Positions 5,867-32,800 of a DNA stretch of 64,000 bases are shown here, piece after piece (within the stretch, counting starts at the first letter, position 1; the number at the start of each line of letters is the position of its first letter). The DNA lies in NCBI GenBank assembly GCA_034005005.1, contig JAVEVO010000002.1, forward strand, positions 4,389 through 68,388. The letters run 5' to 3'. Below the pieces are notes generated by a model. That model saw only the letters and a list, made by a program, of their open reading frames with translations, was not told the DNA's origin and ran no database searches. The DNA comes from Myxococcota bacterium (lineage in GTDB: Bacteria; Myxococcota_A; JAVEVO01). The translations under genes were made by a program, and so were the position numbers.

Positions 5867-7990
5867 ATGGGCAGACCAGGCAACCCGTCGAATTCGCTCG
5901 CTGTCGATGCCCTGACCCGGGAGACGGGGGCCGCACGCCCGCGGCCCGCGGAACCCCCGCGGCCACCGGCGCCGCGGCCCGCCAGGCCGGCCCCGGGCGA
6001 GATCCTCGTCGAGGAGCCCGACCCGGAGGCCGCGGCCCCGGGGCTGCTGTACGCCCGGCACGCCGACTATGCGCGGCGGCTGGCCCAGGCGCTCGCCGCC
6101 CGCTGGCGGCTCGATCCCTTCACCGGCGAGGAGGCGGAGGACGCCGCGCTCGAGGGGCTGCTCGACGCCGCCCAGCTCTGGCAAGACCGCAGCCACACGG
6201 CCCGCTTCACCACCTACGCCTACTGGCACATCCGTGGCAGCATCCTCGGTCGCCTCGCCGAGGTCCGGCGCCGCGTCTCCCTCGACGCCGGTCCGGGGTC
6301 GCCGCGCGGGCGCGGCTGGGCCACGGGCGCTCCCCTGCCGGCGCCGGGCGAGGTCCCCTTCCCCGGGGATCCAGAGGAGCAGGCCGCGCGCCGCGTCTGG
6401 CCGCACGTCGAGGCGGAGCTGAACCTCCTGCGCAGCCGGCAGCGGGTGGCGAGCCTGGTCGTGGAGCTGCGGGAGGCCGGCCGCCTCTCCCCCGTGGAGG
6501 AGCGGATCGTCGGGCCCCTGTTCCTGGAGCAGCAGGAGCTCCCGGAGGTCGCCGCGGCCACGGGGCTCGACCCGCCACGGATCCGCGCCGCGGCGCTGCG
6601 CCTGCTGCAGCGGCTCCGGACGGCCTTGCGCGACGACTCGCTGCTCCCCGAAGGCTGCTGCCGGCTCCCGCTCGAGGAGCTGCCGACCGGACGAGCGGAG
6701 GGACTGCAGATCGCCCGGGAGACCTTGCAGCTCTTGCGCGCGGAGCGGCGAGCCGGCGGGGCGCCGCCCGTCACCCGCCCCCTGGCGAGCTTCTTGCGCC
6801 TGCTCCCCGACATCGAGGCCGTGGCCCGCCGCACCGGGGTCTCGGCCCAGCTCGGCGCCGGCGACACCCCCTGCGCGCGGGTCGCCTCGTTCTACCGCCG
6901 GATCCTCGGGCTGGGACGCGCCGAGCTGGCCGGCGAGCTGGAGATGAAGGGGCCCGCGCTGGACAAGCTGCTCCGCCAGCTCAACCTCGACGCCCGCCAG
7001 TCGACGAGGCGCATCCTGCGGATGGCCAACGCCCTGGCCATCGACCCCGAGCAGCTCCTCTTCCGGGCGTCGCCCCGGCTCGGCGAGGCCTTCGACCGGG
7101 TGCTCTACGCCGGCGAAGACGTCTACCTCGCCCTGCTCACGGTCCCGCTCCCGCCGGCCGAGCTGCTCCCGATCCTGCGGGCGGGCGCCGATCCCGGCGG
7201 GGGCCCGGACATGGGCTCCCTGATCGCCGGCTACCGGCTGGCCCGCGGCATCCCCTCGGCCGCCAGCCTGGGCCGGTACTACAAGGGTTTCGAGGCCGGC
7301 GAGGCCACCGCCATCGAGGGCTGCCTGGCCATGGCGCGGCAGATCGGGATGCCACCCTTGCTGGCCCTGCTCGGCACTCGCCCGGAGCTGCTGGCGCTGT
7401 TCGACCTGCTCGACGGGGAGGGGACCCTGCTCCACGCGAGCGAGCGTGACTATGGTCGCATCTATCTGGTCCTAGAGTACCAAAAAATGCCCGGATCACG
7501 GGACCTGCCCCCGGCCGAAGCGCCCACGCAGCCGGATCTGGCCGCCTACCTGCGGTACCTCCTGGGGCGTTGCGAGCTGCTCTTGACCCCCGAGCGCCTG
7601 GCTGCGGCCGGGATCAACCCCCTGCTCCTCGCCCACGGCCTCGCCGGCCGCGCCCCCCACCAGCCCGAGGCGCTGCGGCCCCTCGCCGAGCTCCTCGCGC
7701 TGGACCCGATCGCCGAGGCTCGGCTCTGCTGCGAGGCCCTGTACCCACGCACCGGCCCCGAGGAGCAGGCCACGATCCGGGAGCTGTGCCGGCTCGCGCA
7801 CGCGCAGACCACGCTCTGCCAGCACCTGGCGACCCACGGCTGGGAGGATCTGAGCCTCCTGCTGACCGCCGACCCGGACGCGACCCGCCAGCTCACCCAC
7901 GAGTTCTACGGACGCTCCCGCCGGGGCCACCGGGGCTACCTGCGGGAGCTGCTCCTCCTGTGGCGAGGCGCAGCCGCCGAGTGGGGCTGA
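5867..7990 (+). CDS. Sigma-70/ECF-family sigma factor-like protein with a roughly 450-aa C-terminal extension (707 aa)
   Basis: Region-2-like segment (…DAAQLWQDRSHTARFTTYAYWHIRGSILGRL…) and region-4 HTH (…SPVEERIVGPLFLEQQELPEVAAATGLDPPRIRAAALRLLQRLRTAL). A long C-terminal domain follows with no recognisable family. The N-terminus is Pro/Arg-rich. Confidence 0.5.
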   Translation: MGRPGNPSNSLAVDALTRETGAARPRPAEPPRPPAPRPARPAPGEILVEEPDPEAAAPGLLYARHADYARRLAQALAARWRLDPFTGEEAEDAALEGLLDAAQLWQDRSHTARFTTYAYWHIRGSILGRLAEVRRRVSLDAGPGSPRGRGWATGAPLPAPGEVPFPGDPEEQAARRVWPHVEAELNLLRSRQRVASLVVELREAGRLSPVEERIVGPLFLEQQELPEVAAATGLDPPRIRAAALRLLQRLRTALRDDSLLPEGCCRLPLEELPTGRAEGLQIARETLQLLRAERRAGGAPPVTRPLASFLRLLPDIEAVARRTGVSAQLGAGDTPCARVASFYRRILGLGRAELAGELEMKGPALDKLLRQLNLDARQSTRRILRMANALAIDPEQLLFRASPRLGEAFDRVLYAGEDVYLALLTVPLPPAELLPILRAGADPGGGPDMGSLIAGYRLARGIPSAASLGRYYKGFEAGEATAIEGCLAMARQIGMPPLLALLGTRPELLALFDLLDGEGTLLHASERDYGRIYLVLEYQKMPGSRDLPPAEAPTQPDLAAYLRYLLGRCELLLTPERLAAAGINPLLLAHGLAGRAPHQPEALRPLAELLALDPIAEARLCCEALYPRTGPEEQATIRELCRLAHAQTTLCQHLATHGWEDLSLLLTADPDATRQLTHEFYGRSRRGHRGYLRELLLLWRGAAAEWG

Positions 7991-8053: not shown

Positions 8054-10348
8054 TCACCGCTCGTCGTCCTCGTCCTGGTCCTCGTCCTGGTCCTCGTCCT
8101 CCTGGTCCTCCTCTTGATCCTCCTCCTCCACACCATCTGGTTCGTCCACCTGCCAGGAGCGATCGACCAGCTTGCCCATGGCTTCGTACTCGATGACCGC
8201 GGACTGCCAGATCAGCTCCTGGCCGACCTCGCTCGCCCCCGCGGCAGAGGCCATCACCGCGGCGCGCAAGGCGCTGTTCTTGATGTGGCCACCGCTCATC
8301 TCGAAGGCCTCGGCGAGCTCGTCCCAGTCCACATCCCGCGCGAGCGGCGCCTCCGCGGGGAAGGCCAGCGCCCAGAGCCGGCGTCGCTGAGACCGGCTGG
8401 GCGCCCGGAACGAGATGCGGAACTTGATGCGCCGGCGGAAGGCCTCGTCGATCACCTCGCCATGGTTGGTGGTCAAGACGGCGACACCGCCGAACTGCTC
8501 GAACAACTGGAGCAGGTGGTTGACCTCCAGGTTGGCGTAGCGGTCCACGGAGCTCCGGACCTCGGTGCGCTTCGTGAACAGGCTGTCCGCTTCATCGAAC
8601 AGGATCACGGAGGGCACGTCCTGGGCGGCCGCGAAGAGCCGGGAGAGGTTCTTCTCGGTCTCACCGACGTACTTGTCGACGAGGGAGGAGAGGTCCACCC
8701 GGTACAGATCCAGCCCGAGCTCGCGCGCGATGACCGAGGCCACCATGGTCTTCCCCGTCCCGGGCGGCCCCTCGAACAACGCGGTGAGCCCTTTACCATA
8801 GGGGAACTTCCGCCCGAACCCCCATTGTTCGAAGACGCGACGCTGATGACGAGCGAAGTGGACGATCTCCTCGAGGCGAGCGCGGGTCTCGACGGGCAGC
8901 ACGACGTCGGGCCAGCCGAACCCCGTCGCGATGCGCTGGGCGATCTTCCCCAGGCGCTCCCCGAGGCGCTGCTGGCACTCCCGCTCGAGCAGCGCGGGCA
9001 GGCCTTCCGGGGAGCCCTCGGCGAGCCGCTCGACCGCTTGCGCCGCGGCCAGACGGATGTCGCCCCCGGAGAGGGCGTAGCGCGCGCCGAGATCCATCCC
9101 GTCGACGCTCGTGGTCAGCCTGGAGTCGAGGAACCGACTCCAGAGCAGCGCGCGCTCAGGGGCCGACGGCAGCGGCAGGCCGAAGCGGAGCAGCCGCGCC
9201 CCGGCCAGTTCGAGCCCCAACCAGTCCGCCCGTTCGAGGCTACGCACGAAGACGGACGCGTCTGCCCGTTGCACCAGCTCGGTCAAACGAACGGCCAATC
9301 CCGGGGCCAGCCCCTCCCGGTCCGGTGGCGGCGCCGACGGCGCGTCGAGCAGCAGCATCGCCCCGTGCAGCCGAGCTTCGCGCAGCAGGGCCGCGAGCCT
9401 CCCCACGGCCTCCTCCGGCGCGGCGAGCAGCGGCGCCAGGTCGGCCTGCAGGAGCCGCTGGCCCCGGCGCGCGGCCAGCCAGCGCCCAGCGCTGCGACGC
9501 CCCGTCCCGCATGGCCCGTAGAGATTGCACCAGGCTGGTGCGCCAGCCTGACCGAGCTGCCCGCCGAGACGGGCCAGCTCAGCCAGCAGCTCGGCGCCGA
9601 GCACGAGCGGCTCGGATGGGTCGGGCAGCGGCAGCAGGCGGGCCTGCAGCTCGGGGGCAACTCCCACGGAGCCGGTGCCACCGAGCAGGAGCGAGGCGAT
9701 CCGACCGGAGAGGTGGAGCTGACGACCACGCAGGGGCAGGTCGCGGGCCCCCTCGTCCTCGAGGTGGACGAGACCGTGGACCACCAAGGGAGAGCCGGGC
9801 GCGAGCCGCCGGAGCACATCGCGAGCGCCCGGGGGGCTGCCGCCGAGGAGATCGGCCAGGAAACCGGCGGTGGGGAGCTTGCGGCCGAAGTCGTTCCAGG
9901 CGAAGCACCAGGCCCGCTCAAAACGGGAGTCGGAGGCTGGCGCGAGCAGCGCCAGGAGGATCCAGCGATCGAGTGGCTCGAGGGGAAACCGGTCGATCAA
10001 GCGATTGAAGGGTAGCTCCACTCCCTCGACGGCGCTGGAGATCAGCCGACGGTCCAGCTCGAGCCGGGAGGCCTTGAGGCGGTCCTCGAGCTCGGGCTCG
10101 GGCAGGTCGATGACGGGAGGCGCATGGAGCAGCCGCCCCACCTCGCGCCCAGGAACGTAGAGGCCGCGGCTGTCCTCGCCCGGCTGGTGGTGCGCTGCCA
10201 GGTAACGGACCAGCAGCAGCCGGGCCCACCCCAGCTCCGCGTCGAGGTGTGCGGTCGCGTCGCGAAAGGGGGCGTCCGAGGCGACGTCCACGCGCACCAC
10301 GGCTCCGGCAGACTCGTCAAGCTCGGCTCGGTCCTCACGGTTTGACAA
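8054..10348 (-). CDS. AAA+ ATPase with a degenerate N-terminal AAA domain and a canonical C-terminal AAA domain (Afp15/Pvc15-like loader-type ATPase), acidic DE-repeat C-terminal tail
   Basis: Canonical Walker A (GPPGTGKT), Walker B ([11 protein letters not shown]) and sensor/arginine-finger region ([15 protein letters not shown]) near the C-terminus. A degenerate first P-loop ([13 protein letters not shown]) lies upstream. The tail is [24 protein letters not shown]. Proposed TTG start at 10348 with GGAG 5 nt upstream. The 5' part of ORF 8054..14413 (above about 10350) is antisense to the real + gene and is not counted. Confidence 0.8.
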
Positions 10349-10408
10349 CTCGGCTCCGGCTGCTAGGGTGAAATCCCTAATACCATTGCAGAGCCGCAGG
10401 AGTCGACA
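10349..10408. promoter_or_regulatory. 60-bp divergent intergenic region between the AAA ATPase and DUF4157 genes; AT-rich core with a TAGGG-N6-CCCTA palindrome
   Basis: tagggtgaaatcccta (10364-10379) followed by the AT-rich taataccattgcagagc. Both divergent start codons (TTG 10348 on the minus strand, GTG 10409 on the plus strand) flank it. Confidence 0.35.
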
Positions 10409-13400
10409 GTGGCGAACCCGACCCACATGCACCAGGTCAGTCGTGTGGCCAGCGGCCGGACCGTGAGCCGCCAGGTCGACTCCGGGGGGGCGATGCAGGC
10501 ACCGGTCGGCGGCGCCAAGGTCGCGCTGCACCGGGGCGATCCCGGAGTGCAGCGACAGGTGGCCCGCCAGCTCCAGGCGGAGCAAGGAAACGCCGCGGTG
10601 GCCCGGCTGGCCCAGGAGCACGAAGGTGAGCCCGACGGAGGCGCCGAACCGCTGTCCGTGGACGCGGCGTTCGCCCTGGCCACGTCCGGCCGCTCGTCCC
10701 GCCTCCCCTTCGCGGCCGAGCTCGGTCCCAAGCTGGGCCTGGACCTCTCCCGGGTGAAGGCCTACCTCGGGGGCCCCGAGGCCGAAGCCGGGCTGGCGGC
10801 GCTCGGTGCCGAGGCCGCGGCCCACGGCGACCAGGTCGCGTTCCGCATGGCATCCCCCTCCAAGGAGCTCGTCGCGCACGAGGCGACCCACATCGCCCAG
10901 CAGGGAGGCAAGCCGGGCGCGACCTCCGGCTTGACCGTCAGCCAGCCCGGAGACGCCCTCGAACGTCAGGCCGAGAGCACCGGCCGCGACCTGGCCGCGG
11001 GCAAGACCCCCACCGGCGGGAAGGACGACCAGGCAGCCGCCGGCTCCTCGCTGGCCCGCGCGCCGGGCCCCGCGGACCCGATCCCGGTCCAGATCGACAC
11101 GGCCCTCGCGGCCACGCCGCTCAAGGCGGGAGCGGTCTACAAGCTGATCTTCCACAAGGATTTCGCGCTGGCCGATCGCACGATCCTGGGCCAGGACGCG
11201 ACCAAGATGGCCAAGATCGCCGCGGCCTTCGCGGCGGACGGCAGCAACATGGCCAAGGCCGCCATCCGGCTCGCCTGCACGCTGGCCGACGTCATCAAGT
11301 GGTGCATGGCCGCCAACCAGGCGAGCAAGCTCGCGGAGAAGCACTTCCAGAACCGCTTCGCCGGGGCCACCGCCGACGAGATCGTCGGCCTGCTCGCCAA
11401 CACCGAGGCGCTGACCGCCTTGATCAACGGCCAGAAGACCGCCAGCCCCATCAAGGCGGCGAGCATGGTGGCGGCCCCCGACAAAACCAAGGCCCTCCTG
11501 ACCGACCCCACCGGCCGGAGCTGGGCGCTGGGGGTCCACGGTGGGCTGCGCAACGTCTTCAAGGCGATGGTCCAGGCCCAGAAGGACGCGATCAAGGCCG
11601 ACGCGCCCACCCTGGCAGCGCTGCTGGCGACGCCCGAGGCCGCGACCGAAGACCTCGCCCAGATGCTCAAGAACCTGGGCTACAAGCCCCTCGAGGCGAT
11701 CCCCCTGCTGCAGACGGCCAACAGCCTGGTCAAGCTCGGCATGCCGCCCTACCCGGCCTGGTTCTGCAAGGAGGTGACGCGCGCCGACCTCGAGCCCTTC
11801 TTCGCGGCGCCGGAGTTCGAGACGCTCAAGAGCTCGGCCGGGCCCGCGATCAAGCCCCTGGAGATCGAGAGCCTGAAGAAGAGCCCAGGTGACTTTGGTA
11901 CCTTGCTCGGCGCGCAGCCCAAGTTCAAGGAATGGATCCTGCAAGCGGAGGGCTGGCCCCCGCTGCTCGAGGCCGTCGCCAAGCGGCTGGACGCGGCGAT
12001 GTACAGCGGGCTCCTCGCGGGCAGCGAGTGGCCGACCCTGGTGCAGGACCTGTATCTCCAGAAGAAGTCGGGAGACACCAAGGACGCCGAGGAGGTCGTG
12101 GCCAAGCTCAAGAAGGTCATGCCCCCGGAACACCAGGAGAACCTGGCGCTGCTCCTGGGGCTGCACGAGCTGAAAGACAAGATCGACGAGGCCGTCGCCG
12201 AGGCGGCGAAGCCGCCGGGGGGCCCGGAGGCCGGCGCCGATGGCGAGGCCAAGGCGCTGACGCCAGCCGAGGCGCTGGAGGCGCAGCTCGCGAAACCGGC
12301 TCCACCACCCAAGGAGCTGCTGGCTGCGGTGCTGGCGCTGCCCGAGGCCGATCGGACGACCCTGGCGGCCGACGACGCGAAGATGTCCAAGATCGCCGCC
12401 CTGCTCGGTCGCGGTGGCCAGGACGTGGTCAAACTGGCGATCGATCTGAAGGCCGCGCTCGACCAGATCGTCCGGTGGGTGCAGGCCGCGGGCCAGGCGG
12501 CCAAGCTCGGCAACAAGCCCTTCGTCGCCCGCGTCCACGACCAGGCCACCGACGTCGAGGTCACCGCCTTCGTCGACAAGCCCGAGCTGCAGACGCTCAT
12601 CGCCGCAGCGGGCAAGGCGGTCAAGCCGCTGGCGATCAAGGACCTCACCGGGAGCACGGCGAAGATGGGCGCGCTGCTCGGGGCCAAGGCCGCGTTCCGC
12701 ACCTGGGCGGTGACGGTCCAGACCTGGGGCGCGCTGCTCGACTACCTGGCCAAGCAGACCGACGCCACCCTGGCCGCGGCGCTGATCGCGGGAGCCGAGT
12801 GGAACAACCTCGTCCAGGACATCGAGCAGCAACGGACCGCCGGTGACCAGACCAAGGCCCGCAAGGCGCTCGACGCGCTCTTCGCAGCGACCCCGGACGG
12901 CAACCTCAACGAGCTGCAGCAGCTCTTCCAGGCCCGCTTCGGCATCTCCGTGACCTCGGCCCAGGCGGCCAATCCGGCGAACACCAAGGCGATGACCGAA
13001 GGCGATGGCCAGCATGAGCGAGCCTGGGACGCACCCGCCCTCCGGCGAGTCTACGATTCCTACAAGAAGCTGCCGCCAGGCCAGGTGGAATCGGGGAAGA
13101 CCGAGGTCGCGACCAGCTACGTCACCTACGATCCGGTCTGTCCGGCCTGCGGCAACGACAACTCCAAGGACGCTGCCGGAAACAAAGTCGGGCAATGGGG
13201 GCCCAACTGCTCCGGCGGAGCTGCCCCATGCGGCGCGGCCCTCGACGTGACCAACAACTGGAGCGGCTTCGCCTACAACGCCACCCCGCACCTGTCCATC
13301 CAGTACGACGATCAGGACATCGCCAAGGACGAGACCGGGGGGTACACGGACAACGCCAAGGACCTGCGCCGCAACACCAAGCTGCTGGACTACACCGCGC

Positions 13401-14086
13401 TGCACGAGCTGGGCCATCGCGTCGATGAGGGACGAAAGTACACCAACAAGGACCAGACCTTCCTGGACCTGGCCGGGTGGAAGGCCTACCCCGTCGGGAA
13501 CGCGGGGGGAGGGGCGGATCTCGCCAAGAAGCTGCGGGACAAGATGGGTGCCCCCTACGGGGGAGGCGCGCTGACCGACCCCGAGAAGGCGCTCGTGGTG
13601 GACGGTGCAGCCAACGCCCTGGCCGCGGCGACTCGCCCGAAGATCGTGGACGATCTGAAACCTCACCTCCAGGCGGCGTACACCGCCAAGTACGGCGGCC
13701 TGGCCGCGGGGATGGATGGCAGCAAGGCCTACCGCGAGTTCGACAACGTCGCCGGCACGGGGCTGTGGAGCGCGGCCAAGACGTCGAACCTCTACGTGCA
13801 GGTCGCAGCCGGCAACGAGGCCAACTCCCCCTGGTACACGGGGGAGCCCTTCGGGAGATTGAACAAGGGACTCCAGTTCCACGAAGGGTACGGGTACGAG
13901 GGCTGCTGGTGGGCCTACAAGACGACGGCGTGGAGCACGAAGATCAGCCTCTATCAGTTCCGCTGCCCAGCCGACCACTTTGCAGAGCTCTACGCACTCT
14001 GGTGGGTCACTGCGACACCAGGAGATAAAGTCAAAGGCAAGGCCCGGGACTGGTTCAAGTCCAAGAACCTCCACAAGGACGGCTGA
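10409..14086 (+). CDS. DUF4157 (PVC/eCIS-associated zincin, HExxH) domain protein, 1225 aa, with internal duplication and a C-terminal second HExxH putative toxin domain
   Basis: AGGAG RBS, then GTG 10409. The DUF4157 signature is …SGRSSRLPFAAELGPKLGLDLSRVKAYLGG…GDQVAFRMASPSKELVAHEATHIAQQ. Two roughly 330-aa Ala/Lys-rich helical repeats follow (…DATKMAKIAAAFAADG… and …DDAKMSKIAALLGRGG…). The C-terminal Cys-containing domain carries HELGHRVDEG. Confidence 0.8.
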   Translation: MANPTHMHQVSRVASGRTVSRQVDSGGAMQAPVGGAKVALHRGDPGVQRQVARQLQAEQGNAAVARLAQEHEGEPDGGAEPLSVDAAFALATSGRSSRLPFAAELGPKLGLDLSRVKAYLGGPEAEAGLAALGAEAAAHGDQVAFRMASPSKELVAHEATHIAQQGGKPGATSGLTVSQPGDALERQAESTGRDLAAGKTPTGGKDDQAAAGSSLARAPGPADPIPVQIDTALAATPLKAGAVYKLIFHKDFALADRTILGQDATKMAKIAAAFAADGSNMAKAAIRLACTLADVIKWCMAANQASKLAEKHFQNRFAGATADEIVGLLANTEALTALINGQKTASPIKAASMVAAPDKTKALLTDPTGRSWALGVHGGLRNVFKAMVQAQKDAIKADAPTLAALLATPEAATEDLAQMLKNLGYKPLEAIPLLQTANSLVKLGMPPYPAWFCKEVTRADLEPFFAAPEFETLKSSAGPAIKPLEIESLKKSPGDFGTLLGAQPKFKEWILQAEGWPPLLEAVAKRLDAAMYSGLLAGSEWPTLVQDLYLQKKSGDTKDAEEVVAKLKKVMPPEHQENLALLLGLHELKDKIDEAVAEAAKPPGGPEAGADGEAKALTPAEALEAQLAKPAPPPKELLAAVLALPEADRTTLAADDAKMSKIAALLGRGGQDVVKLAIDLKAALDQIVRWVQAAGQAAKLGNKPFVARVHDQATDVEVTAFVDKPELQTLIAAAGKAVKPLAIKDLTGSTAKMGALLGAKAAFRTWAVTVQTWGALLDYLAKQTDATLAAALIAGAEWNNLVQDIEQQRTAGDQTKARKALDALFAATPDGNLNELQQLFQARFGISVTSAQAANPANTKAMTEGDGQHERAWDAPALRRVYDSYKKLPPGQVESGKTEVATSYVTYDPVCPACGNDNSKDAAGNKVGQWGPNCSGGAAPCGAALDVTNNWSGFAYNATPHLSIQYDDQDIAKDETGGYTDNAKDLRRNTKLLDYTALHELGHRVDEGRKYTNKDQTFLDLAGWKAYPVGNAGGGADLAKKLRDKMGAPYGGGALTDPEKALVVDGAANALAAATRPKIVDDLKPHLQAAYTAKYGGLAAGMDGSKAYREFDNVAGTGLWSAAKTSNLYVQVAAGNEANSPWYTGEPFGRLNKGLQFHEGYGYEGCWWAYKTTAWSTKISLYQFRCPADHFAELYALWWVTATPGDKVKGKARDWFKSKNLHKDG

Positions 14087-14087
14087 C

Positions 14088-14774
14088 GTGACGGTGCGCC
14101 GAGCTCGAACCTCGAGCTGGTCCTTGCTGACCGCAGCCTGGGCCTTGCTGGCGAGCGCCTGCAATCCCGAGGGCGTCCGGGCCGAGCCCCCCGCCTCTGG
14201 AACCCCTCCGGCCGCTCCGCGCCCGGCCGACCTGCAACCAACCCCGGAGAAGCCCATGGACCCCCGCGCCGCTCTCGAGCAACAGATCCGCCAGGCCCGC
14301 CCGGGCGCCGCCTTCACCGTGACCGAGGTCCCCTTCGGCGTGGCGGGCTGGTCCTTCTTCGACGTCACCTTCACCCCGACCGCCACGGCCATGGACCGGA
14401 GCGCCGACCGCACGGCCTACACGCTGCGCGCCGACGGCAGCGTGGTCGCGGGAGACCGACGGCCGGAGCTGGGACGGATCCTCGGCCGGGCCGGCGCGCT
14501 GGAGCCGGGAGCCGGAGGGCGCACACCCCGACAGCTCGCCGAGCTCGTCCTTCACGTGCTGGGGCGGCCGGAGAGCCCGCTCGACGGACCGGGAAGGGAT
14601 CCGCAGAGCCCGCAGGGGCACGCCGCGCCCCCCTTGCTCGAGGCGACTGCCCAGGGGGTCCAGCTCCGCTTCTTCACCCTGCAGGCCGGTGCCATGGTAC
14701 CGGAAGTCGTCCGCTACCAGATCGATCTCTCACGGGATCTCACCCTGACCATGGAGCGCCGCGCGCTCCGCTGA
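14088..14774 (+). CDS. Small lipoprotein immediately downstream of the DUF4157 protein (candidate immunity/partner protein)
   Basis: GTG at 14088 lies 2 nt after the upstream TGA. Signal peptide and lipobox (…SWSLLTAAWALLASAC). No recognisable family. The earlier part of ORF 13980..14774 overlaps the upstream gene and is excluded. Confidence 0.5.
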   Translation: MTVRRARTSSWSLLTAAWALLASACNPEGVRAEPPASGTPPAAPRPADLQPTPEKPMDPRAALEQQIRQARPGAAFTVTEVPFGVAGWSFFDVTFTPTATAMDRSADRTAYTLRADGSVVAGDRRPELGRILGRAGALEPGAGGRTPRQLAELVLHVLGRPESPLDGPGRDPQSPQGHAAPPLLEATAQGVQLRFFTLQAGAMVPEVVRYQIDLSRDLTLTMERRALR

Positions 14775-14787
14775 CAAGGGTTCCAAC

Positions 14788-15369
14788 GTGACCACCGAGG
14801 ACCCGGACCTGCCCGAGCGCGCAGACCTGGAACAGGGCCTGAAGTACCTGCACCTCGTCGGCGAATCGCTGCGCAACGAGCTGGTGGCCGAAGGGGGACT
14901 CCTCTACGCCCTGGTGGACCTGCTGATCGCCAAGGGAATGATCCGCACGGTCGAGCTGGAGCAGCCGCGGGCAGAGGCCGCGGCCCGGGTGCAGCAGACC
15001 CTCGCGGCCATCCCGTCCCTGGCCTTCGGGCCGCTGGTCGACAAGTACGCCTTGGTCGTGGCCGGCCCCAGCGACTGCCTGGCGCGGCTGCCCGTGTGCC
15101 GGGGCGCCTGCTGCCGGCTGCCCCGCTGCCTGTCGGTCCAGGACCTGCAGGAGGGCGGGCTGCGGTGGGACTACTTCGCCCCCTACCTCCTCGGTCGCAC
15201 GCCGGACGGTCGCTGTCTGCATCAAGACGCACACCACCGCTGCACGGTCTACGACCGGCGGCCGGCCGCGTGCCGGAGCTACGACTGCCGCACCGACGGC
15301 CGCATCTGGCTGGACTTCGACCGCTGGCTGGTCCACCCGGACGTGGAGCAGCTCGGACGGCCCCGCTGA
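14788..15369 (+). CDS. YkgJ-family Fe-S/zinc-cluster protein (CxxCxxCC domain)
   Basis: …LPVCRGACCRLPRCLSV…CLHQDAHHRCTVYDRRPAACRSYDCR… matches the PF03692/UPF0153 cysteine pattern. Confidence 0.65.
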   Translation: MTTEDPDLPERADLEQGLKYLHLVGESLRNELVAEGGLLYALVDLLIAKGMIRTVELEQPRAEAAARVQQTLAAIPSLAFGPLVDKYALVVAGPSDCLARLPVCRGACCRLPRCLSVQDLQEGGLRWDYFAPYLLGRTPDGRCLHQDAHHRCTVYDRRPAACRSYDCRTDGRIWLDFDRWLVHPDVEQLGRPR

Positions 15370-21149: not shown

Positions 21150-21677
21150 TCAGGTCCACTGCTTGCGCAGGGAGTAGGCCAGCAGGTACCCGCCGGCGAA
21201 CACCGCGAACATGAACGCGAAGCTACCGACCGAGAGCACCGCGCCGCCGCTGAGAGCCTGGCCCGAGGTGCAGCCCCGGGCGAGCCGGGCGCCGTAGCCC
21301 ATCAGGGCGCCGCCGACCAACGCGAGGAGGAGGCGGGTCCCGGCCTGGACCCGCGGGCCTCGCCGCAGCTCGAGCTTGAAGCGCCGGTTGAAGAGGCCGC
21401 TCAAGGCCCCGCCCAGCATGGTGCCGAAGAGCATGAAGACCGAGCTGTGATCGAAGGGGTTGCGGCTGCCGCCCGCGGTCTCCGCGAGGCCCGCGACCCG
21501 GTCGACGTGGTCCGGCGCGGCCAGGGCGACCAGACCCGACTGCACCCGGCTGATCGCGCCCGAGGCGCCCAGCCCGCCGCCCGTGACGAAGAAGGCTAGA
21601 AAGAGCACGACGCCCAGCAGACAGCCTCCCAGGTAGGGGTTCAGGTAGGGTCGCGGCCCCCTGGCGTCGTCAGACAT
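21150..21677 (-). CDS. YeeE/YedE-family membrane protein (second half-transporter)
   Basis: …YGARLARGCTSGQALSGGAVLS… is the Sulf_transp motif. ATG 21677 (MSDDARGP) with AGGAGG 6 nt upstream is preferred over the GTG at 21692. Confidence 0.75.
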   Translation of the reverse strand: MSDDARGPRPYLNPYLGGCLLGVVLFLAFFVTGGGLGASGAISRVQSGLVALAAPDHVDRVAGLAETAGGSRNPFDHSSVFMLFGTMLGGALSGLFNRRFKLELRRGPRVQAGTRLLLALVGGALMGYGARLARGCTSGQALSGGAVLSVGSFAFMFAVFAGGYLLAYSLRKQWT

Positions 21678-23907
21678 CACCGCCTCCTTCACCGGGCGCG
21701 GGCCCTTCGTCGAGGATGTCGTAGCCCGTGATCATCGCCCGCAGGTTGCTGCCGAGGGTGTGCCCGGTGGTGATCAGGTACAGGTGCGCCACCACGAAGG
21801 CCAGCAAGGCCCAGGAACCGAGGTTGTGCAAGGGTGCGATCAGGTACAGCCCGGGCAGGTCGACGGCCAGCCCCGGCTGGCGGCCGGTCAGCCAGATCAG
21901 GATCCCCGTGACCACCTGGAAGGGGATCAACACGTTGAGCAGCATCAGGTAGGTCACCTGCTGCAAGGGGTTGAGGTGGCGCTGCGGGGTGCGGGGCAGC
22001 GGATGGGGCGCGCCCACGAAGATGCCGTGGAGATAGAAACGGGCCTGGCTCAGGACATCCCGGAACAGGGTCGGCCCCCGCGGGATGAACTGCCGGATGT
22101 CGGTGGTGACGAGGTGGTAGAACAGGCTGAGCACCGCATTGACGATCAGCACCAGGGCGAGGGCGTTGTGCAGCCGCACCGCGTGGGCGAACCCGAGCAA
22201 CGGGAAGCAGTCGACGAAGTGCACCTCGAGGCCCGTGAGGAGCAACAGCACGATGCTCGCCGCCATCAACCAGTGCCACAGCCGCTGGTAGCGGGTGTAC
22301 AGGTAGACCTGCCGGTTGGGCCCGTGAGTTGCCGGACGACGTCGCCGGGTCACGAAGCGCACCAGGCCGTGCACGAAGATGCCGGCGAAGGCGAGGAGGA
22401 ACAGGCCGAAGCCGGTCCGATCGGACCAGCCCTCCCGGCTGTGCCCGAAGATGTAGACCGTCGCCGTGGCCGGCGGCTCGTAGACCAGCTCACGGGCTGG
22501 ACCTGGCAGCAGACGCCCCCCGGCGAGGGGCCCCGTGGAGGGGAGCTCCAAGCGCAGACCCGGAGGGAGGGCCCCGACCAGGGGGATGGGCAGCGCCAGG
22601 CGGCCCTGCTCCCCGTGGCAGCGACCGCAGGCCATGGTCGCGCCGGCCCGCTCCTGGGTGCCATGGTGCAGGCCGTGGGCCTCGACGCTGCCAGTCAGCC
22701 GCGGCTGCGTGACCCCCTGCTGCCGGAGCAAGTCTGCGACCAGCGCGACCTTGGCCTCCGTGTCGAGGTGCTGCTCCGGCGCGGCCAGGCGCCCGTCGTG
22801 ATCGGTGTCGAGCTGGGCCAGGAGTGCAGGCTTGTAGCGCCCGCGCTCCAGCAGGGCCGCGGCGAGGGTCGTCAACGGCACGTCCCCGCCGCTGGCCGCA
22901 TCCTGCCAGCCGAGCAGCGTGACCAGGTTGAAGGGCCGCCAGCGAGGATCCCCGCCATGGGCCGAAGGGACGGGGAGCAAGGCGGGCGAGAAGGGCGAGG
23001 TGAGGCGGACGTTGGGGGAGACGCCCGGGTCCAGGGGCTGGTTGTGATAGGTCACCAGCGCACTGCCGGTCTCCATGACCAAGGTCGCATCGATCACCGC
23101 AACCGTAGGACCAAAGCTCTCGGGGGCATGGCAGGTCGAGCAGGCGACCCGCTCGAAGTGACGCTTGGGGTAGGGCAGCTCGGGGTGGACGGCCAGGGGC
23201 TCGTGGCAGCTCGTGCAGGGGGCGGCGCCGAGCCGGTGGTCGGGCCGCACCAGGTAGCTGCCGAGGCTCACCTGACGGGGATCCCGCTTCAGATGCGGTA
23301 GGCCGGCCCCCGGACGTGAGCGGGCCGGGTGGTTGGCCGACCGGTGGCAGTCGGTGCAGGTGAGCAAGCGGGCCGCGTGGATGTCGAAGGGCCGGTCGAG
23401 GCCATCCTTGCCCACCAGGTTGAGGTGGCTGGCGGCCATCTGCTGGGAGGAATAGACCACGCCGCTGGCCTTGGTCAGCGAGTGGTGGTCCTCGATGAGG
23501 GCCGTCGGCGTCCAGTCGTAGTCCTCGGGGAGTGCGAGGGGCCAGGGATCGGTGTGCACCAGGCCGTGACAGCGACCACAGCGGCTCGTGGTGGGTGCGG
23601 AGAGGTCGATCTCTTCCCGCACGAGCCGCCCTTGCTCGTCGAGCTGCTTTTCGCCGATGTCCCAGGGCTGGTCACGGTGGCAGACGGAGCACTCGAGACC
23701 AGGATGGCTGTTGTGTTGCTCGATGTACGCGACGTCGTGGCACTGGCTGCAGGTCGCGGCCTCCGAGAAGACCCCGCCCTGCTCGAGGAGGGACCCGCCC
23801 TCCTCGTTGCGCGCCACGAAGGTGGGGTGCAGGGGGTTGGGCGCGGCGAGGGCCAACGACGGCAGCAGCCAGAGGAGGAGCAGAGGAAACGGGCCACGCA
23901 CGCTCAT
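21670..23907 (-). CDS. CbcL-like fusion: periplasmic multiheme c-type cytochrome (7+ CxxCH) plus C-terminal diheme cytochrome b (HydC/FdnI-like) membrane domain
   Basis: Signal peptide MSVRGPFPLLLLWLLPSLALA. CxxCH motifs: CSQCH, CSVCH, CGRCH, CTDCH, CTSCH, CSTCH, CGRCH. C-terminal cytochrome b (PF01292-like) helices with conserved His (…YTRYQRLWHWLMAASIVLLLLTGLEVHF…APLHNLGSWALLAFVVAHLYLI…). Confidence 0.8.
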   Translation of the reverse strand: MSVRGPFPLLLLWLLPSLALAAPNPLHPTFVARNEEGGSLLEQGGVFSEAATCSQCHDVAYIEQHNSHPGLECSVCHRDQPWDIGEKQLDEQGRLVREEIDLSAPTTSRCGRCHGLVHTDPWPLALPEDYDWTPTALIEDHHSLTKASGVVYSSQQMAASHLNLVGKDGLDRPFDIHAARLLTCTDCHRSANHPARSRPGAGLPHLKRDPRQVSLGSYLVRPDHRLGAAPCTSCHEPLAVHPELPYPKRHFERVACSTCHAPESFGPTVAVIDATLVMETGSALVTYHNQPLDPGVSPNVRLTSPFSPALLPVPSAHGGDPRWRPFNLVTLLGWQDAASGGDVPLTTLAAALLERGRYKPALLAQLDTDHDGRLAAPEQHLDTEAKVALVADLLRQQGVTQPRLTGSVEAHGLHHGTQERAGATMACGRCHGEQGRLALPIPLVGALPPGLRLELPSTGPLAGGRLLPGPARELVYEPPATATVYIFGHSREGWSDRTGFGLFLLAFAGIFVHGLVRFVTRRRRPATHGPNRQVYLYTRYQRLWHWLMAASIVLLLLTGLEVHFVDCFPLLGFAHAVRLHNALALVLIVNAVLSLFYHLVTTDIRQFIPRGPTLFRDVLSQARFYLHGIFVGAPHPLPRTPQRHLNPLQQVTYLMLLNVLIPFQVVTGILIWLTGRQPGLAVDLPGLYLIAPLHNLGSWALLAFVVAHLYLITTGHTLGSNLRAMITGYDILDEGPAPGEGGGDV

Positions 23908-25322
23908 CGTCTGCCTCCGACCCCGGCCGGGTCCGCGTCGTAGCCGAGGGCCGCCCAGTCCAGCCGGCCGCCAGCACCATGGCAATCGGCGCAGGCGAGG
24001 GCCTGCCCGGCCTGGCGCACCAGGTGGTTGAGGGGCCAGTACATCGCGGTGGCGACGAAGCCGTACTGCCCGCTGTACGCGAGGCCGGCCTGCTGGGCCC
24101 CCTGGCGGAGCGCGCCGTCCCAGTCGAAGGTCGTCCAGTACCCGGTCGGCCCGGTGGTCTGCGGGGTGAGCAGGTGCTCGTGCTGGAGGTCGTAGGGCTG
24201 CTTGCCGCGGTGCACCTTGAAGGGATAGATCTTCGATTTCTTGTCGCCTTTGGCGCCGAGGGGCGGATTCAGCTCAGTCGTCCTCGCGGGATCGACGGGG
24301 TCACCAGCGAGGTATCGCCCCGTGCGACCATCCCACCAGCGGTACTCGGGGACCAGGCTCTGGCCGTAAACGAACGCGCCCTTCTTCTTCTGGTACTGGT
24401 GTTCGTCCTGGGGACGCGTGCCGTCGCCGGCCTGGCTCCAGTCCCAGGCGAGCTTGGTCGGGGCGAGGTGCGCGTGGGTGGGGATGTGGCAGGTCGGGCA
24501 GGCCACCGCGGCGAGGTGGGTGTCGAGCCGGGCGTCCTGGTGCCGGTGACGCTGGTGGCAATCCTCGCACGCGAGGCTGTGGGCACGGTCGACGCTCACC
24601 GCGATGGAGCGGCCCCGGAGCGCGTGCTCCCGGCCGCCGTGGCAGTCGATGCAGAGCATCCCCTGCAGCCCCATGTGCACATCGTCCTTGGCCTGGGGAG
24701 TGGTCAGCCCCGTGTTCAGGTCACCGTGCTTCACGCCCATGCCCCCGCCGCCGAAGAAGTGGCAGACACCGCAGTTGTCGAGGCGGGGGTAGCCGACCGA
24801 GCGGGCCACAGCCCGCAGATCGGTCCCGGGGACGGGCAGCCCGGCGTCACCCTTGAGGTAGCTGCCGGACCAGTCGTGGCAGACCAGGCAGTCGACGTTC
24901 TCCTCCCTGGTGAAATCATAGCGACCGTCCCGCCAGCCGTAGCCCGCGTGGCACTTGGTGCACATCGTCTCGTTGCTGGTGATGCCGATGCAGAAGTTGT
25001 TGATCAGGTTGCGCTTGCCCACGGCGTGGATGCCGGTGCGGCCCGGGATCTCTGCTGGCGGGGCCAGCCAGGTGAAGTGGGTGCTCCCCAGCAGTTGCCG
25101 GCCGGCGTTCGGGTGGCAGCGCAGGCAGGCCCGGGTCACCTCGGGCCCCTCCTGAAACGGCTGGTCGAAGAAGGAGGAATGGTCGAGGTGGGCGCGATGC
25201 CCGGGGGTCGGGGGACGGGAGGAGGCCGTTGGCCGCCAGAGCCCCCATCCGGCCAGCAAGAGGCCCCCGGCCGCGACGAGCGCGAGCAGGGAGAGCAAGA
25301 GTCGCTTTTTCGTCAACGCCAC
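23904..25322 (-). CDS. Octaheme c-type cytochrome, tetrathionate-reductase (OTR) family-like
   Basis: Signal peptide and eight CxxCH motifs (CLRCH, CTKCH, CLVCH, CGVCH, CIDCH, CEDCH, CPTCH, CADCH). GTG start at 25322. ATGA overlap with the downstream CbcL-like gene. Confidence 0.7.
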   Translation of the reverse strand: MALTKKRLLLSLLALVAAGGLLLAGWGLWRPTASSRPPTPGHRAHLDHSSFFDQPFQEGPEVTRACLRCHPNAGRQLLGSTHFTWLAPPAEIPGRTGIHAVGKRNLINNFCIGITSNETMCTKCHAGYGWRDGRYDFTREENVDCLVCHDWSGSYLKGDAGLPVPGTDLRAVARSVGYPRLDNCGVCHFFGGGGMGVKHGDLNTGLTTPQAKDDVHMGLQGMLCIDCHGGREHALRGRSIAVSVDRAHSLACEDCHQRHRHQDARLDTHLAAVACPTCHIPTHAHLAPTKLAWDWSQAGDGTRPQDEHQYQKKKGAFVYGQSLVPEYRWWDGRTGRYLAGDPVDPARTTELNPPLGAKGDKKSKIYPFKVHRGKQPYDLQHEHLLTPQTTGPTGYWTTFDWDGALRQGAQQAGLAYSGQYGFVATAMYWPLNHLVRQAGQALACADCHGAGGRLDWAALGYDADPAGVGGRR

Positions 25323-25381
25323 CTCCGGGGGGCGAATTGTCGTCTACGCTCGACCCGGAAGGCGATAGCAGACCGCACAGC

Positions 25382-29633: not shown

Positions 29634-29841
29634 GCCGATCACCTCCGCGCCCCCCGGGGGGGCTCTGCTTTAATTTGAGACAAATAGAATCTCAATTGTA
29701 GATAAACACCGTTCCAGTCATCCACCTGACCAGGGACCGGTTTGAGGATTGACTCTCGCTGCAGTTGTCGATTAGGCTCGTTCCGTTCCAGAAGTCTATT
29801 CTGCAGAGAGCGAAGGCAGCAACCAGCAGCGAGGTAATCTC
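29634..29841 (+). promoter_or_regulatory. AT-rich (about 45% GC) promoter/regulatory island upstream of the giant lipoprotein gene, containing GTTCCAG direct repeats
   Basis: tttaatttgagacaaatagaatctcaattgtagataaac in a roughly 72% GC background. gttccag occurs at 29711 and 29785. GAGGT RBS before ATG 29842. Confidence 0.45.
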
Positions 29842-32800
29842 ATGAGAATCCGCACGCTTTTCCATCCGCTGGTCCGGATCCTGTTGGTCCTGGCCCTGAG
29901 CTTGTCCGCCCTGCCCGGGTGCGGCGGTGAGGCCGACCCAGGCGAGGGCGAGGGCGAGGGCGAGGGCGAGGGCGAGGGCGAGGGCGAGGGTGAGGGCGAA
30001 GGGGAGGGCGAGGGAGAAGGCGAGGGAGAGGGTGAAGGAGAGGGTGCTCCGCCCTGCGTGCCCTGCCCGCCGGGAGCCTCGTATCCTTGCCCCGAGCCCT
30101 GTCCCGGCGGCGCGGGCGGGGTGATGCGCTGCGAGCAGCAGCCGAGCGGCCAATACTGCTGGGCCGCGGCCTGTGACTGCGCCGGGTGCACCGTCGGTCA
30201 GACCATGGCCTGCACCTGCGGCGCCGACCCCGGCGTGCAGAACTGCACCAAGTCGGGCACCTGGGGCTCCTGCATGAAGGACTGCGCCTTGCCCAACCCC
30301 GATGGCGGGCTCGACCTGCCGGGCAAGGCCTTCTGCACCCCGCTCGGCACCTGGAGCGAGTGCACCAGCGGCTGCCCCGAGACCGAGTGCTCCGCGGGAC
30401 AGGTCGCCGACCCGGACTTCGGTTGCGGGTGCTTCGACGCGTATCGCGAGAACATCGACTGCACCAACACGGGCCTGGCGCCCGGTGCAGCCCAGGCCTT
30501 CGGCATCCGCGTCTACCAGAACGGCGCCTGGCGCTGGCAGAACTGCCAGCCACGTTCGTGCCTCAGCGGCTACACCCTCCAGGGGGCGGAGTGCGTCCAG
30601 TGCCAGACCGCGGACCAGTGCGGCCCCGGTGAGGATCTCATCGGTTGCCTCTGCCAGGCCGTGGATTGCCCCCCCGACGAGCTGATCTGCCAGTGCGAGG
30701 CCGACGTCTGCATCAGCGCCAGTTGCGGCCCCGAGTTCTGCCTGCCGGCCAACGGCTGCGAGGCGAAGAACCCCGCCGAGTTCGAGGCGAGCTGCTCGGG
30801 GGGGCCGGTCGAGGAAGAGAAGTGCACGATCTGCCACACCGGCCTCGAGAAGGCCCACGTGCCCTTCCTGAGCTGCGTGGAGTGCCACGGCGGTGACGCG
30901 AGCACGGTCAACGTGCTCCAGGCCCACGTCGCCAAGCCGGCCGCCATGGCCAGCACCTGGAACTCCACCGACCCGGTCACCGGGACATACTTCAACTACC
31001 TGACCCACGTCGGCCTCGAGGACGAGCGGTTCGACGACCCGGCGACGCCCTCGATCCACGAGGGTCTGGCCTGGTTGAAGTTCTCCAACCCGGCCGACCT
31101 GCGGGTGGGCGGCCAGACCTGCGGCAAGGAAGGCTGCCACACGACGATCCTCGGCGCGGTGACCAAGAGCGTCATGGGGACCTCGGCCGGCGTGATCGGC
31201 GGCGCCCACTACGCGCTGGGCCTCGGCCGCCGGGTGAACGGGCTGCCCATCGACACCGAGGCCGCCCGGCTCGCCAGCGTCGCCGCCCGGACCACCCCCC
31301 TGCTCGACGAGGGGATGGTCTCCGAGCCCAACTTCCCCACGGGCACCGCCCGCGAGCTGGCCCCCTACCCCACCGCCGAGCTGCGTGACATCGGCGACAG
31401 CTCCGACGAGGGCCTGGCCGCGATGCTCGAGGACACCATCGACAAGGCCTGCGCCTCCTGCCACGTCGGCAGCAAGGGCGCCAACCGCCGGGCCGGCGAC
31501 TTCCGCTCCGCAGGCTGCTCGGCCTGCCACGTCCTGTACGAGGACGACGGCGTCAGCCGCTCCGCGGACGCCAGCATCCTCAAGACCGAGCCGTACTACG
31601 ACCCCTCCAACCCCGGGGTCGCGGACGCCTACACCGACATCATGCTCAAGCCCGGGCAGCGGCCCCACCCCTACCAGCACCGGCTGACCCGCAAGCTGCC
31701 GTCGCGCCACTGCGCGCACTGCCACAACGAGTCCAACTGGACGGTGATGCAGTTCAAGGGGCAGCGGCCCGATCCCAACGGCGACCTGCAGGCCACCTTC
31801 GGCTGCCAGGAAGGCGGCAACGAGGACAAGTGCCGCTACGACAACTCCCTCGTCGGGGAGAAGCGCCGCCACGGCCTGAAGTACCACCAGATCATCGACT
31901 ACGAGGACCTCAACGGGGACGGGGTCGACGACACCCCCGCGGACGTCCACTTCCTCGCGGGGCTCGACTGCATCGACTGCCACACCCCCACCGAGATGCA
32001 CGGCGACGGCCGCATCCACAGCCGGATGGACCAGGCCACCGAGATCCGCTGCGCCTCCTGCCACGGCACCATCGACAGCTACATCGACCCGGCCCAGTCG
32101 CCGATCCCCAACCTCGTGCGCCAGGGCACCGAGGCCCGCCCCTCCTTCTACCTCAAGTCGAAGATCACCGGGCGGCTGCACTACATCTACCAGGTCAAGG
32201 ACTCGGCCATGGACGTCTCCCCCGGCGCCCGTGACCCCCGCACCGGCGAGCGCGTCTACGCCCGCAACGCCAGCCTCGCACACGGCCGCTGGAACGGTGC
32301 GGAGAACGTCGACGACGGCATCGGGATCAAGTCCCTCGACGCCAGCGCGCCCGACGGGGAGACCACCCGCGACGGCTTCAGCCACGCGGACACCCTGGAG
32401 TGCAACACCTGCCACGCGACCTGGGGCAACATGTGCTACGGCTGCCACCTGACCCTGTCGGACTACGATCCCACGGGCAACGAGCCCCTGTCCGACTTCT
32501 CCAACGTCAGCGGGCTGCTCTCCCCCGGCAAGGTGGTCCAGAAGGACGTGACCTTCGTCTCGATGCTCGACATCCAGCTCGGCGTGAACAGCCGCGGCAA
32601 GGTGTCCCAGTTCACCCCGGGCGGCAAGGTCTTCTTCCGCCACATCACCCACCCCCAGGGTGCCGACGATTTCCAGGGCTCCACGGGCGCGTCCTACCGC
32701 ACCTTCAACGACCGACTGGGCTTCGGCAACCGTGTCGGCGCGGGCCTCGCCTCTCGCGACCCCGACCTCGGCGGGCTGTACAACAGCGACGTGCGGGCGG

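Follow-up and report, generated by a model that had tools for sequence, protein, structure and literature searches.

The window analysed here is a stretch of 64,000 nucleotides of chromosomal DNA with a guanine-plus-cytosine (GC) content of 72%, from a Myxococcota bacterium (contig JAVEVO010000002.1). On its forward strand, positions 10409 to 14086 (stop codon included) hold an open reading frame (ORF) for a protein of 1225 aa, which we call the effector in keeping with its candidate role as cargo of a contractile injection system (CIS). The gene is one of four in a small cassette: an AAA+ ATPase is encoded divergently upstream, and a candidate immunity protein, called the partner below, and a CxxCxxCC protein follow downstream. 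The context of the effector was read from this window and from related loci.

Architecture of the effector

The codon-position GC of the ORF (0.69/0.48/0.91) was typical of a real gene in a genome of 72% GC. The start codon is a GTG, and a Shine-Dalgarno motif, AGGAG, was read in the sequence 6 nt 5′ of it (10398-10402, +). The divergent intergenic region spans 60 nt (10349-10408), and a promoter scan did not find a sigma-70 consensus in it. An orthologue of 97% identity, P0001, lies with the same neighbours on a 49.7-kb JGI contig; a tblastn search of plasmids with the effector returned no match.

The first 95 residues (10409-10693, +) are hydrophilic and carry no Sec signal. By composition only, they have a grand average of hydropathy of −0.42, 1.1% aromatic residues and 66% disorder-promoting residues. 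By analogy with the N-terminal domains that Cgo1/Cgo2 need for loading and with the N-termini of toxins associated with extracellular CIS (eCIS-associated toxins, EATs), this region is likely to be the loading sequence. The short members (~450 aa) of the family defined by the C-terminal domain lack a Sec signal as well, and all have polar N-termini. A Sec-secreted protease was rejected as an explanation since the signal peptide is absent in the effector and its relatives.

Residues 101-168 (10709-10912, +) match the eCIS_core/DUF4157 family (PF13699; E 1.3e-10 in Pfam, with 41.8 bits where the cut-off is 22) over profile positions 6-78 of 79, in agreement with the N-terminal DUF4157 that an earlier note on this DNA had recognised. 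The HEATH motif of this domain is followed by the family motif GDxxExxAE (GDALERQAE in the effector), and HEATHIAQQ...GDALERQAE aligned with 20 other DUF4157 domains in an alignment of 21. A DUF4157 together with a hydrophilic, disordered and aromatic-poor N-terminus is a trait of EATs that the effector shares by composition. More generally, the published EAT signature is a DUF4157 at the N-terminus and a toxin at the C-terminus, with a long linker between them (PMC8213781; PMC11297309). The domain occurs in more than half of the predicted eCIS toxins, most of which have no other annotated domain (PMC11297309). AlgoCIS cargo, likewise, consists of a disordered N-terminal loading sequence, DUF4157 and a variable C-terminal domain, and an AAA+ protein, Alg15, loads this cargo into the tube (bioRxiv 10.64898/2026.05.27.728243). 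The layout of the effector matches that of such published DUF4157 cargo (PMC8213781; bioRxiv 10.64898/2026.05.27.728243).

The protein carries two HExxH motifs, HEATH at aa 157-161 (10877-10891) and HELGH at aa 999-1003 (13403-13417). Both had been noticed before and are conserved in homologues, but the positions then given were off by 1 nt. From composition, HExxH is expected 0.018 times per protein; of 20,000 shuffles of the effector, a single one contained two. An hhalign comparison of the two domains aligned only 17 columns around HExxH, with a probability of 55%. This bears out two distinct zincin domains, and on the same ground we rejected that they are duplicates of each other.

Between the zincin domains lies an all-α repeat region (11171-12976, +), in a middle part of the protein with 20% Ala, 13% Leu and 8% Lys. 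Self-comparisons by blastp resolved it into the modules A1 (aa 255-377, 11171-11539), A2 (aa 386-520, 11564-11968) and B1 (aa 520-602, 11966-12214), a Pro/Ala linker (aa 603-642, 12215-12334), and the modules A3 (aa 643-777, 12335-12739) and B2 (aa 777-856, 12737-12976), all on the forward strand. Residues 386-602 and 643-856 share 31% identity (E 1e-29), residues 255-377 and 647-771 share 34% (E 1e-14). The internal homology described in the earlier note is therefore real, and the strings quoted for it are present (DATKMAKIAAAF at aa 263, DDAKMSKIAALL at aa 655, EWPTLVQDL at aa 540 and EWNNLVQDI at aa 797), but the units measure ~350 and ~215 aa (A-A-B and A-B) and are not two of ~330 aa. An AlphaFold model of the region, built on a 6-sequence alignment, consisted solely of helices of 8-15 residues (pLDDT, the predicted local distance difference test score, 89.9; predicted template modelling score, pTM, 0.53), and Foldseek returned weak, non-significant ARM/HEAT-like matches (E ~1e-2, TM < 0.25). 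These short, ARM/HEAT-like helices do not form a coiled stalk; the earlier note had spoken of a repeat stalk. No named family was found for the region in Pfam (E ≤ 10), NCBIfam or PADLOC. A and B modules recur in variable copy number in P0004, P0005, P0023, P0117, P0098, P0067 and P0139, all of which end in the C-terminal zincin. Judging from the model, the region is an α-solenoid-like spacer of variable length.

The earlier note had taken this arrangement for that of a polymorphic toxin. In the classical form of such a toxin, DUF4157 would be a releasing or processing peptidase, the repeats a stalk, and the C-terminus would be freely exchanged among close relatives. The two zincins, the DUF4157, the internal duplication and the unnamed C-terminus all stood up to analysis, and an immunity-like gene does lie downstream. 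DUF4157 was first named PVC-metallopeptidase in the polymorphic-toxin literature (PMC8213781), the effector has kept both its HExxH and the ExxA motif downstream, and across the superfamily it carries many different C-termini. However, no swap was observed on this particular stalk: all the A/B-module proteins that were found have the same C-terminal zincin, a domain conserved in ~205 cluster representatives along with an adjacent partner gene of its own, and the architecture is preserved in full in relatives of 97%, 47% and 38% identity. The module carriers were retrieved with a C-terminal query, a full-length word-index search having given only P0001 and one DUF4157-only match. No autoprocessing site was evident either. 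A processing role of DUF4157 is, moreover, only putative; published work found the domain dispensable for cargo loading and the toxicity of Cgo1 independent of its metalloprotease motif (PMC11297309; bioRxiv 10.64898/2026.05.27.728243). We consider a classical polymorphic toxin very unlikely.

At a coarser level modularity is real, to judge from the domain assignments. DUF4157 was present in 21 of 60 long members of the zincin family, the others having none, and it was found with other C-termini in P0002 and in a Nostoc protein. A few family members carry an N-terminal T6SS_Tse3_N (3), LysM (2) or Annexin (2) domain, a hint that there are further routes of delivery for the zincin, or that it binds cell wall or membrane.

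The C-terminal zincin domain

The C-terminal domain (12920-14083, +; aa ~838-1225) belongs to a family without a name, in which the HExxH is followed by an Asp, D1006 in the effector. An exhaustive phmmer search recovered 205 cluster representatives at E ≤ 1e-3, of which 56 remained at E ≤ 1e-10. The members are mostly metagenomic and unnamed, and the zincin domain is always C-terminal in host proteins of about 250-1467 aa. Word-index searches, whether started from the complete sequence, from its C-terminal 365 aa or from a profile of 22 sequences, found almost nothing: the C-terminal query missed even the 99%-identical P0001, and the family profile returned nothing. We rejected an orphan status of the domain, the word index being blind to a family for which the exhaustive search found 205 representatives. 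Scans of genome contigs gave only 2 loci and of metagenome contigs only 1, because the short patterns are promiscuous.

Two segments were nearly invariant, HExxHxxD, within the conserved stretch DtT..HExGHxVD, and YQxRxPx[E/D]xFAExYA, conserved as YQFRxPx[E/D]xFAExYA. Among 145 sequences, H999 and E1000 were each conserved in 143, H1003 in 142 and D1006 in 139. Position 1189 is Glu in 134 and Asp in 15 of 149 sequences, and E1193 was found in 145 of 148. In the effector, D1189 and E1193 both lie in YQFRCPADHFAELYA (aa 1182-1196). Further conserved motifs were RFG...W...GL..Y.....LP..H, GW, PW and RQxHEGY, the last of which reads RQFHEGY in the effector (aa 1155-1161).

An AlphaFold model of the domain from 22 family sequences was confident (pLDDT 88.7, pTM 0.89). 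It runs from a β-sheet to the HExxH helix, a helical insert, a β-hairpin with RQxHEGY and a helix with D1189 and E1193. HELGH (model residues 162-166) lies on helix 155-168, with strands at 63-69, 115-119 and 124-128 and a pLDDT of 94-98 in these parts; position 1189 and E1193 are both on helix 350-363. A HExxH helix after a β-sheet subdomain and an acidic ExxxD/E pair on a later helix are traits of gluzincins. The fold of this domain had been named as the check on the zincin reading, and the model, in which HExxH and, further along the chain, the conserved acidic pair each sit on a helix, leaves that reading standing. The zinc is likely to be bound by H999 and H1003, with E1000 acting as general base. 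The D1189/E1193 pair, placed by the model, is a candidate to supply the third ligand and its support.

The β-subdomain contains a four-Cys insertion (C911, C914, C934 and C941; 13121-13243, +), which may form a small zinc knuckle. The C-terminal segment had been described as Cys-containing. The cysteines do exist, but in the alignment the insertion occurs only in the effector, P0001 and P0004 and is not a feature of the domain family. It was also the part of the model with the lowest confidence (pLDDT 50-55 at model residues about 90-110).

No Pfam, NCBIfam or PADLOC match exceeded the threshold for the C-terminal domain, in line with the earlier note, which did not recognise it as any named toxin family, and sequence searches against solved structures (PDB) gave nothing significant. 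The sub-threshold matches of the family recur to zincins only. In a PDB profile search, PPEP-1/Zmp1 and an ATLF-like protein aligned at both motifs with E 0.3-2. When 22 family members were scanned one by one against Pfam, Peptidase_Mx1 was matched by 8 (best 4.8e-5), ATLF by 4 (best 0.006) and M90 by 2, the window protein itself having no match in these scans. From these motifs we propose that the domain represents a gluzincin-like, previously unnamed family with motif-level likeness to anthrax lethal factor, PPEP-1 and MtfA. It is not demonstrably M34, because all matches are below significance.

Genes of the cassette and their surroundings

The gene upstream of the effector (8054-10348, −) starts with a TTG and encodes a 764-aa ATPase of the Pvc15/Afp15/Alg15 type, with Pfam matches to the winged-helix domain (WHD) family PF22977 (1.7e-27) and to the AAA family PF00004 (5.7e-30). 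The winged helix is N-terminal. It is followed by a degenerate D1, in which the Walker A Lys is replaced by Arg (GPCGTGRRS), and by a D2 with GPPGTGKT and FDEAD. From these motifs D2 is predicted to be active and D1 degenerate, and the published features of Pvc15 are the same: an N-terminal winged helix, a K-to-R Walker A in D1 and an active D2 with GTGK and DEAD (PMC11495950). The best full-length plasmid homologues, from Nostoc pn3 (36% identity) and S. clavuligerus (46%), both lie within CIS clusters, the former next to gp25, baseplate proteins and a DUF4157 protein of 2074 aa, the latter beside DUF4255, sheath, tube, VgrG and gp25. Linkage to an AAA+ ATPase of the Afp15/Pvc15 class is a further trait of EATs, and here it was kept in two related loci despite rearrangement: in L015, where 51 aa are visible and share 71% identity, the ATPase gene is divergent, in L021 it lies in the same operon as the effector relative (39% identity over 664 aa, E 1e-107).

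PADLOC yielded only a generic IetA/TRIP13 AAA match, on which ground a known anti-phage defence system was rejected. An antisense ORF of 2119 codons (8054-14413, −) extends across the effector gene, and the one real gene in this ORF is the ATPase gene, which makes up the 3′ third (8054-10348).

The partner gene (14088-14774, +) begins 2 nt after the effector stop. Its 228-aa product has a lipoprotein signal, MTVRRARTSSWSLLTAAWALLASAC, which a Pro-rich tether connects to a globular domain of ~170 aa. An alternative ATG start at 14256 would give 172 aa; the NCBI gene call is the 228-aa form. No named family was found in Pfam (E ≤ 10), NCBIfam or PADLOC, and tblastn against plasmids gave no match. 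A homologue of ~175 aa adjoins the zincin gene in all eight distinct loci that we examined (hmmsearch E 1e-55 to 1e-69), so that an adjacent candidate immunity gene co-varies with the zincin, a trait known from polymorphic toxins. A Bradymonadales locus without DUF4157 (L001) has two tandem copies of the partner upstream of the zincin gene (E 7e-10 and 4e-9). Since the partner is present even there, it tracks the C-terminal zincin and not DUF4157. N-termini with a signal peptide or lipobox were found in the window, in both copies of L001 and in L014, L015, L019 and L021. The constant adjacency, the prevailing signal or lipobox and the tandem copy form a pattern like that of VgrG2b-Cter/PA0261. 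By this analogy the partner is most likely an immunity protein that binds the zincin, and in this genome a periplasmic lipoprotein.

The same protein might instead be a cargo aimed at a eukaryote, be it a protist, a fungus or an invertebrate. It would then act as a lethal-factor-like protease, with the partner as a chaperone or adaptor. The only named relatives of the zincin domain, all of them weak, include anthrax lethal factor/ATLF and M34. The ARM/HEAT-like character of the repeats fits as well, such repeats being common in eukaryote-directed effectors, and two of the partner proteins have no signal peptide. Many eCIS do act on eukaryotes, and most eCIS toxins have no immunity genes (PMC8213781). 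However, the partner has a signal of the lipoprotein or Sec type in the majority of loci, the window included, which would place it in the periplasm, away from the cytoplasmic cargo that a chaperone would serve. Tandem copies as in L001 are typical of immunity genes, and the similarity to lethal factor is not significant. A eukaryotic target thus appears improbable to us.

The last gene of the cassette (14788-15369, +) encodes a CxxCxxCC protein of 193 aa, PF03692-like and of the YkgJ-type Fe-S/Zn kind according to a weak Pfam match (E 6e-4 to 8e-4). It occurs in four of the eight loci, with orthologues of 41-58% identity at the same position in L015, L017 and L021, and is more conserved than the accompanying effector; tblastn against plasmids gave no match. 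A radical-SAM protein follows the gene in L015, and a glycyl-radical enzyme lies upstream in L017, neighbours that may point to metal-cluster or redox chemistry.

Several genes further away deserve mention. A 707-aa protein (5867-7990, +), encoded convergently with the ATPase, shows a sub-threshold N-terminal sigma-70 region 2/4 of the extracytoplasmic function type and a long C-terminal part without a family; its gene is kept in orthologous JGI/Logan contigs and was not seen in the other cassettes. At 21670-25343 (−), multihaem c-type cytochromes (MtrC/MtrF-like, cytochrome c7/c3, cytochrome b561) lie beside sulphur-transport and rhodanese genes, which suggests an anaerobic, metal- or sulphur-respiring host. 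A 3351-aa ORF (29776-39831, +) contains ~30 tandem Cys-rich units of 144 nt, or 48 aa, of the CxxGxC...DCGGxC type (repeats at 34650-38966), a weak Fibrinogen_C match near its C-terminus and an unusual codon-position GC of 0.58/0.55/0.94. In L019/L020 (P0020), a second DUF4157 protein (1346 aa) is encoded 9 kb upstream of the family member, and a TIR_2 protein and several unannotated genes give these loci the look of a toxin island.

Delivery, target and comparison with known systems

The earlier note lacked two decisive pieces of context, the CIS-type ATPase next door and the conserved lipoprotein that resembles an immunity protein. With this context, we consider it reasonably probable that the ORF encodes a DUF4157-class CIS cargo effector, housed in an effector-immunity cassette with its own loader, and that its target is the envelope of other diderm bacteria. 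The analysis shows the domain assignments, the conservation of the motifs, the confidence of the models, the synteny of the cassette and the CIS affiliation of the ATPase; loading, delivery, catalysis, immunity function, and the compartment and organism targeted are inferred. The protein would be ordered as a disordered loading N-terminus, DUF4157, an α-solenoid-like spacer and a gluzincin-type metallopeptidase. The WHD-AAA+ ATPase would unfold it and pass it to the tube of a CIS whose genes lie elsewhere in the genome, and the particle would inject it into neighbouring diderm bacteria, where the zincin protease may cleave envelope or periplasmic proteins. The lipoprotein partner would protect kin cells by binding the zincin, and the CxxCxxCC metal-cluster protein might be an accessory in the cassette.

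A number of observations weigh against this interpretation. Foldseek with the zincin model found no significant neighbour in PDB (E > 0.8) or BFVD, and every link of the domain to named zincin families was sub-threshold. The partners in L017 and L023 have no signal peptide, and the CxxCxxCC protein has no role in the proposed mechanism. Over a range from ~19 kb upstream of the effector to ~50 kb downstream, neither sheath, tube, gp25, baseplate J, DUF4255 or VgrG/PAAR genes nor CIS spike or terminator domains were found, and CIS structural genes were not found in the visible flanks of seven related loci, which for most of them measure at most 10 kb. Over the same range the effector is not within ~10 genes of an eCIS operon, in contrast to 88% of the training-set eCIS toxins, which lie within ten genes of one (PMC11297309).

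The lack of structural genes, in ~83 kb around the gene and near any of the seven related cassettes, could also mean that the ATPase and the zincin form a module independent of any CIS. Such a module might be exported by another route (outer-membrane exchange, vesicles or lysis) or act as an intracellular unfoldase-protease pair, the lipoprotein and the CxxCxxCC protein being its own accessories. The four genes indeed travel together and are rearranged as a unit, and the CxxCxxCC protein does not belong to the known components of a CIS. An AAA+ protein with a zincin is, in addition, a recurrent proteolytic pairing, as in FtsH. However, effector islands far from the machine are common as satellites of type VI secretion systems, the visible flanks of most related loci are short, as stated above, and PADLOC gave nothing beyond the generic AAA match. 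DUF4157 and the WHD-AAA ATPase are, furthermore, strongly CIS-associated, both in the literature (PMC8213781) and among annotated homologues. A CIS-independent module is, in our view, unlikely.

A further option, which we put forward only tentatively and hold to be rather doubtful, is that the four genes make up a mobile cargo cassette that is autonomous and is maintained at a distance from CIS structural genes, or even in their absence. If this were the case, CIS cargo could bring its own dedicated loader to a distant machine, or DUF4157 and a Pvc15-like ATPase could work as a delivery or activation module without a contractile particle. In both cases the C-terminal domain would stand for a new family of antibacterial gluzincins that target the envelope, served by an immunity family of its own.

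Injection-system effectors of the DUF4157 type are known as a kind. New are the C-terminal zincin family, its candidate immunity family and the repeat spacer, as is the packaging, at a distance from structural genes, in a cassette with an ATPase of its own together with a CxxCxxCC protein. Cargo choice and self-protection of the producer are open questions for eCIS (PMC8213781; bioRxiv 10.64898/2026.05.27.728243). The zincin family offers clear predicted catalytic residues for mutation, and its candidate immunity family, rare among eCIS toxins, would allow a direct test of antibacterial, periplasm-directed action. A loader that travels with the cargo and not with the machine could show how ATPase-cargo specificity is encoded, which would be useful for engineering programmable injection systems.

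In its disordered N-terminus, DUF4157, long ordered region and terminal effector domain the effector is like Cgo1/Cgo2 and the EATs, and at 1,225 aa it is close in size to Cgo2 (1,228 aa). Among the DUF4157 proteins that we compared, a set without Cgo1/Cgo2, no similarity to the effector extended outside DUF4157. As for AlgoCIS and EAT cargo, the effector gene is linked to an AAA+ ATPase of the Afp15/Pvc15/Alg15 type; unlike such cargo, it is not in or next to a CIS operon and comes with an ATPase, a lipoprotein partner and a CxxCxxCC protein of its own. The ATPase in turn resembles Pvc15, Afp15 and Alg15 in its DNA-binding-like winged helix, the Arg-for-Lys exchange in D1, the GTGK and DEAD of D2 and its homologues in CIS clusters, but it lies away from any visible structural operon and is paired only with the cargo cassette.

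With M34 (anthrax lethal factor, PPEP-1/Zmp1), MtfA (M90) and Peptidase_Mx1 the zincin domain shares the HExxH and an Asp three residues after the second His. The P-x-E-x-F-A-E on its later helix aligned, in the sub-threshold PDB profile match, with the P-x-E-F-F-A-E of PPEP-1, which we take to hold the zinc-binding Glu185. Similarity to these families nevertheless stayed low, with E 0.3-4 in the PDB profile search and a best Pfam value of 4.8e-5 in one member. From the HExxH to the acidic helix, the domain spans ~186 residues, including the helical insert and the RQxHEGY hairpin; in M34 this spacing is about 40-45 residues. We found no significant similarity in sequence or fold that would make the domain a member of M34/ATLF.

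Contractile machines are known to deliver periplasm-acting HExxH metallopeptidases that are neutralised by periplasmic or lipoprotein immunity proteins (PMC6899460). The cassette is like Tpe1/Tpi1 and VgrG2b-Cter/PA0261 in pairing an HExxH metallopeptidase with an adjacent, poorly conserved and presumably periplasm-exposed immunity protein, which in those systems is a lipoprotein in some lineages. In VgrG2b-Cter, however, the toxic domain is a DUF4157 fused to VgrG, whereas in the effector DUF4157 sits at the N-terminus, and it is the other zincin that the partner goes with. Set beside these systems, the locus extends current models and overturns none of them.

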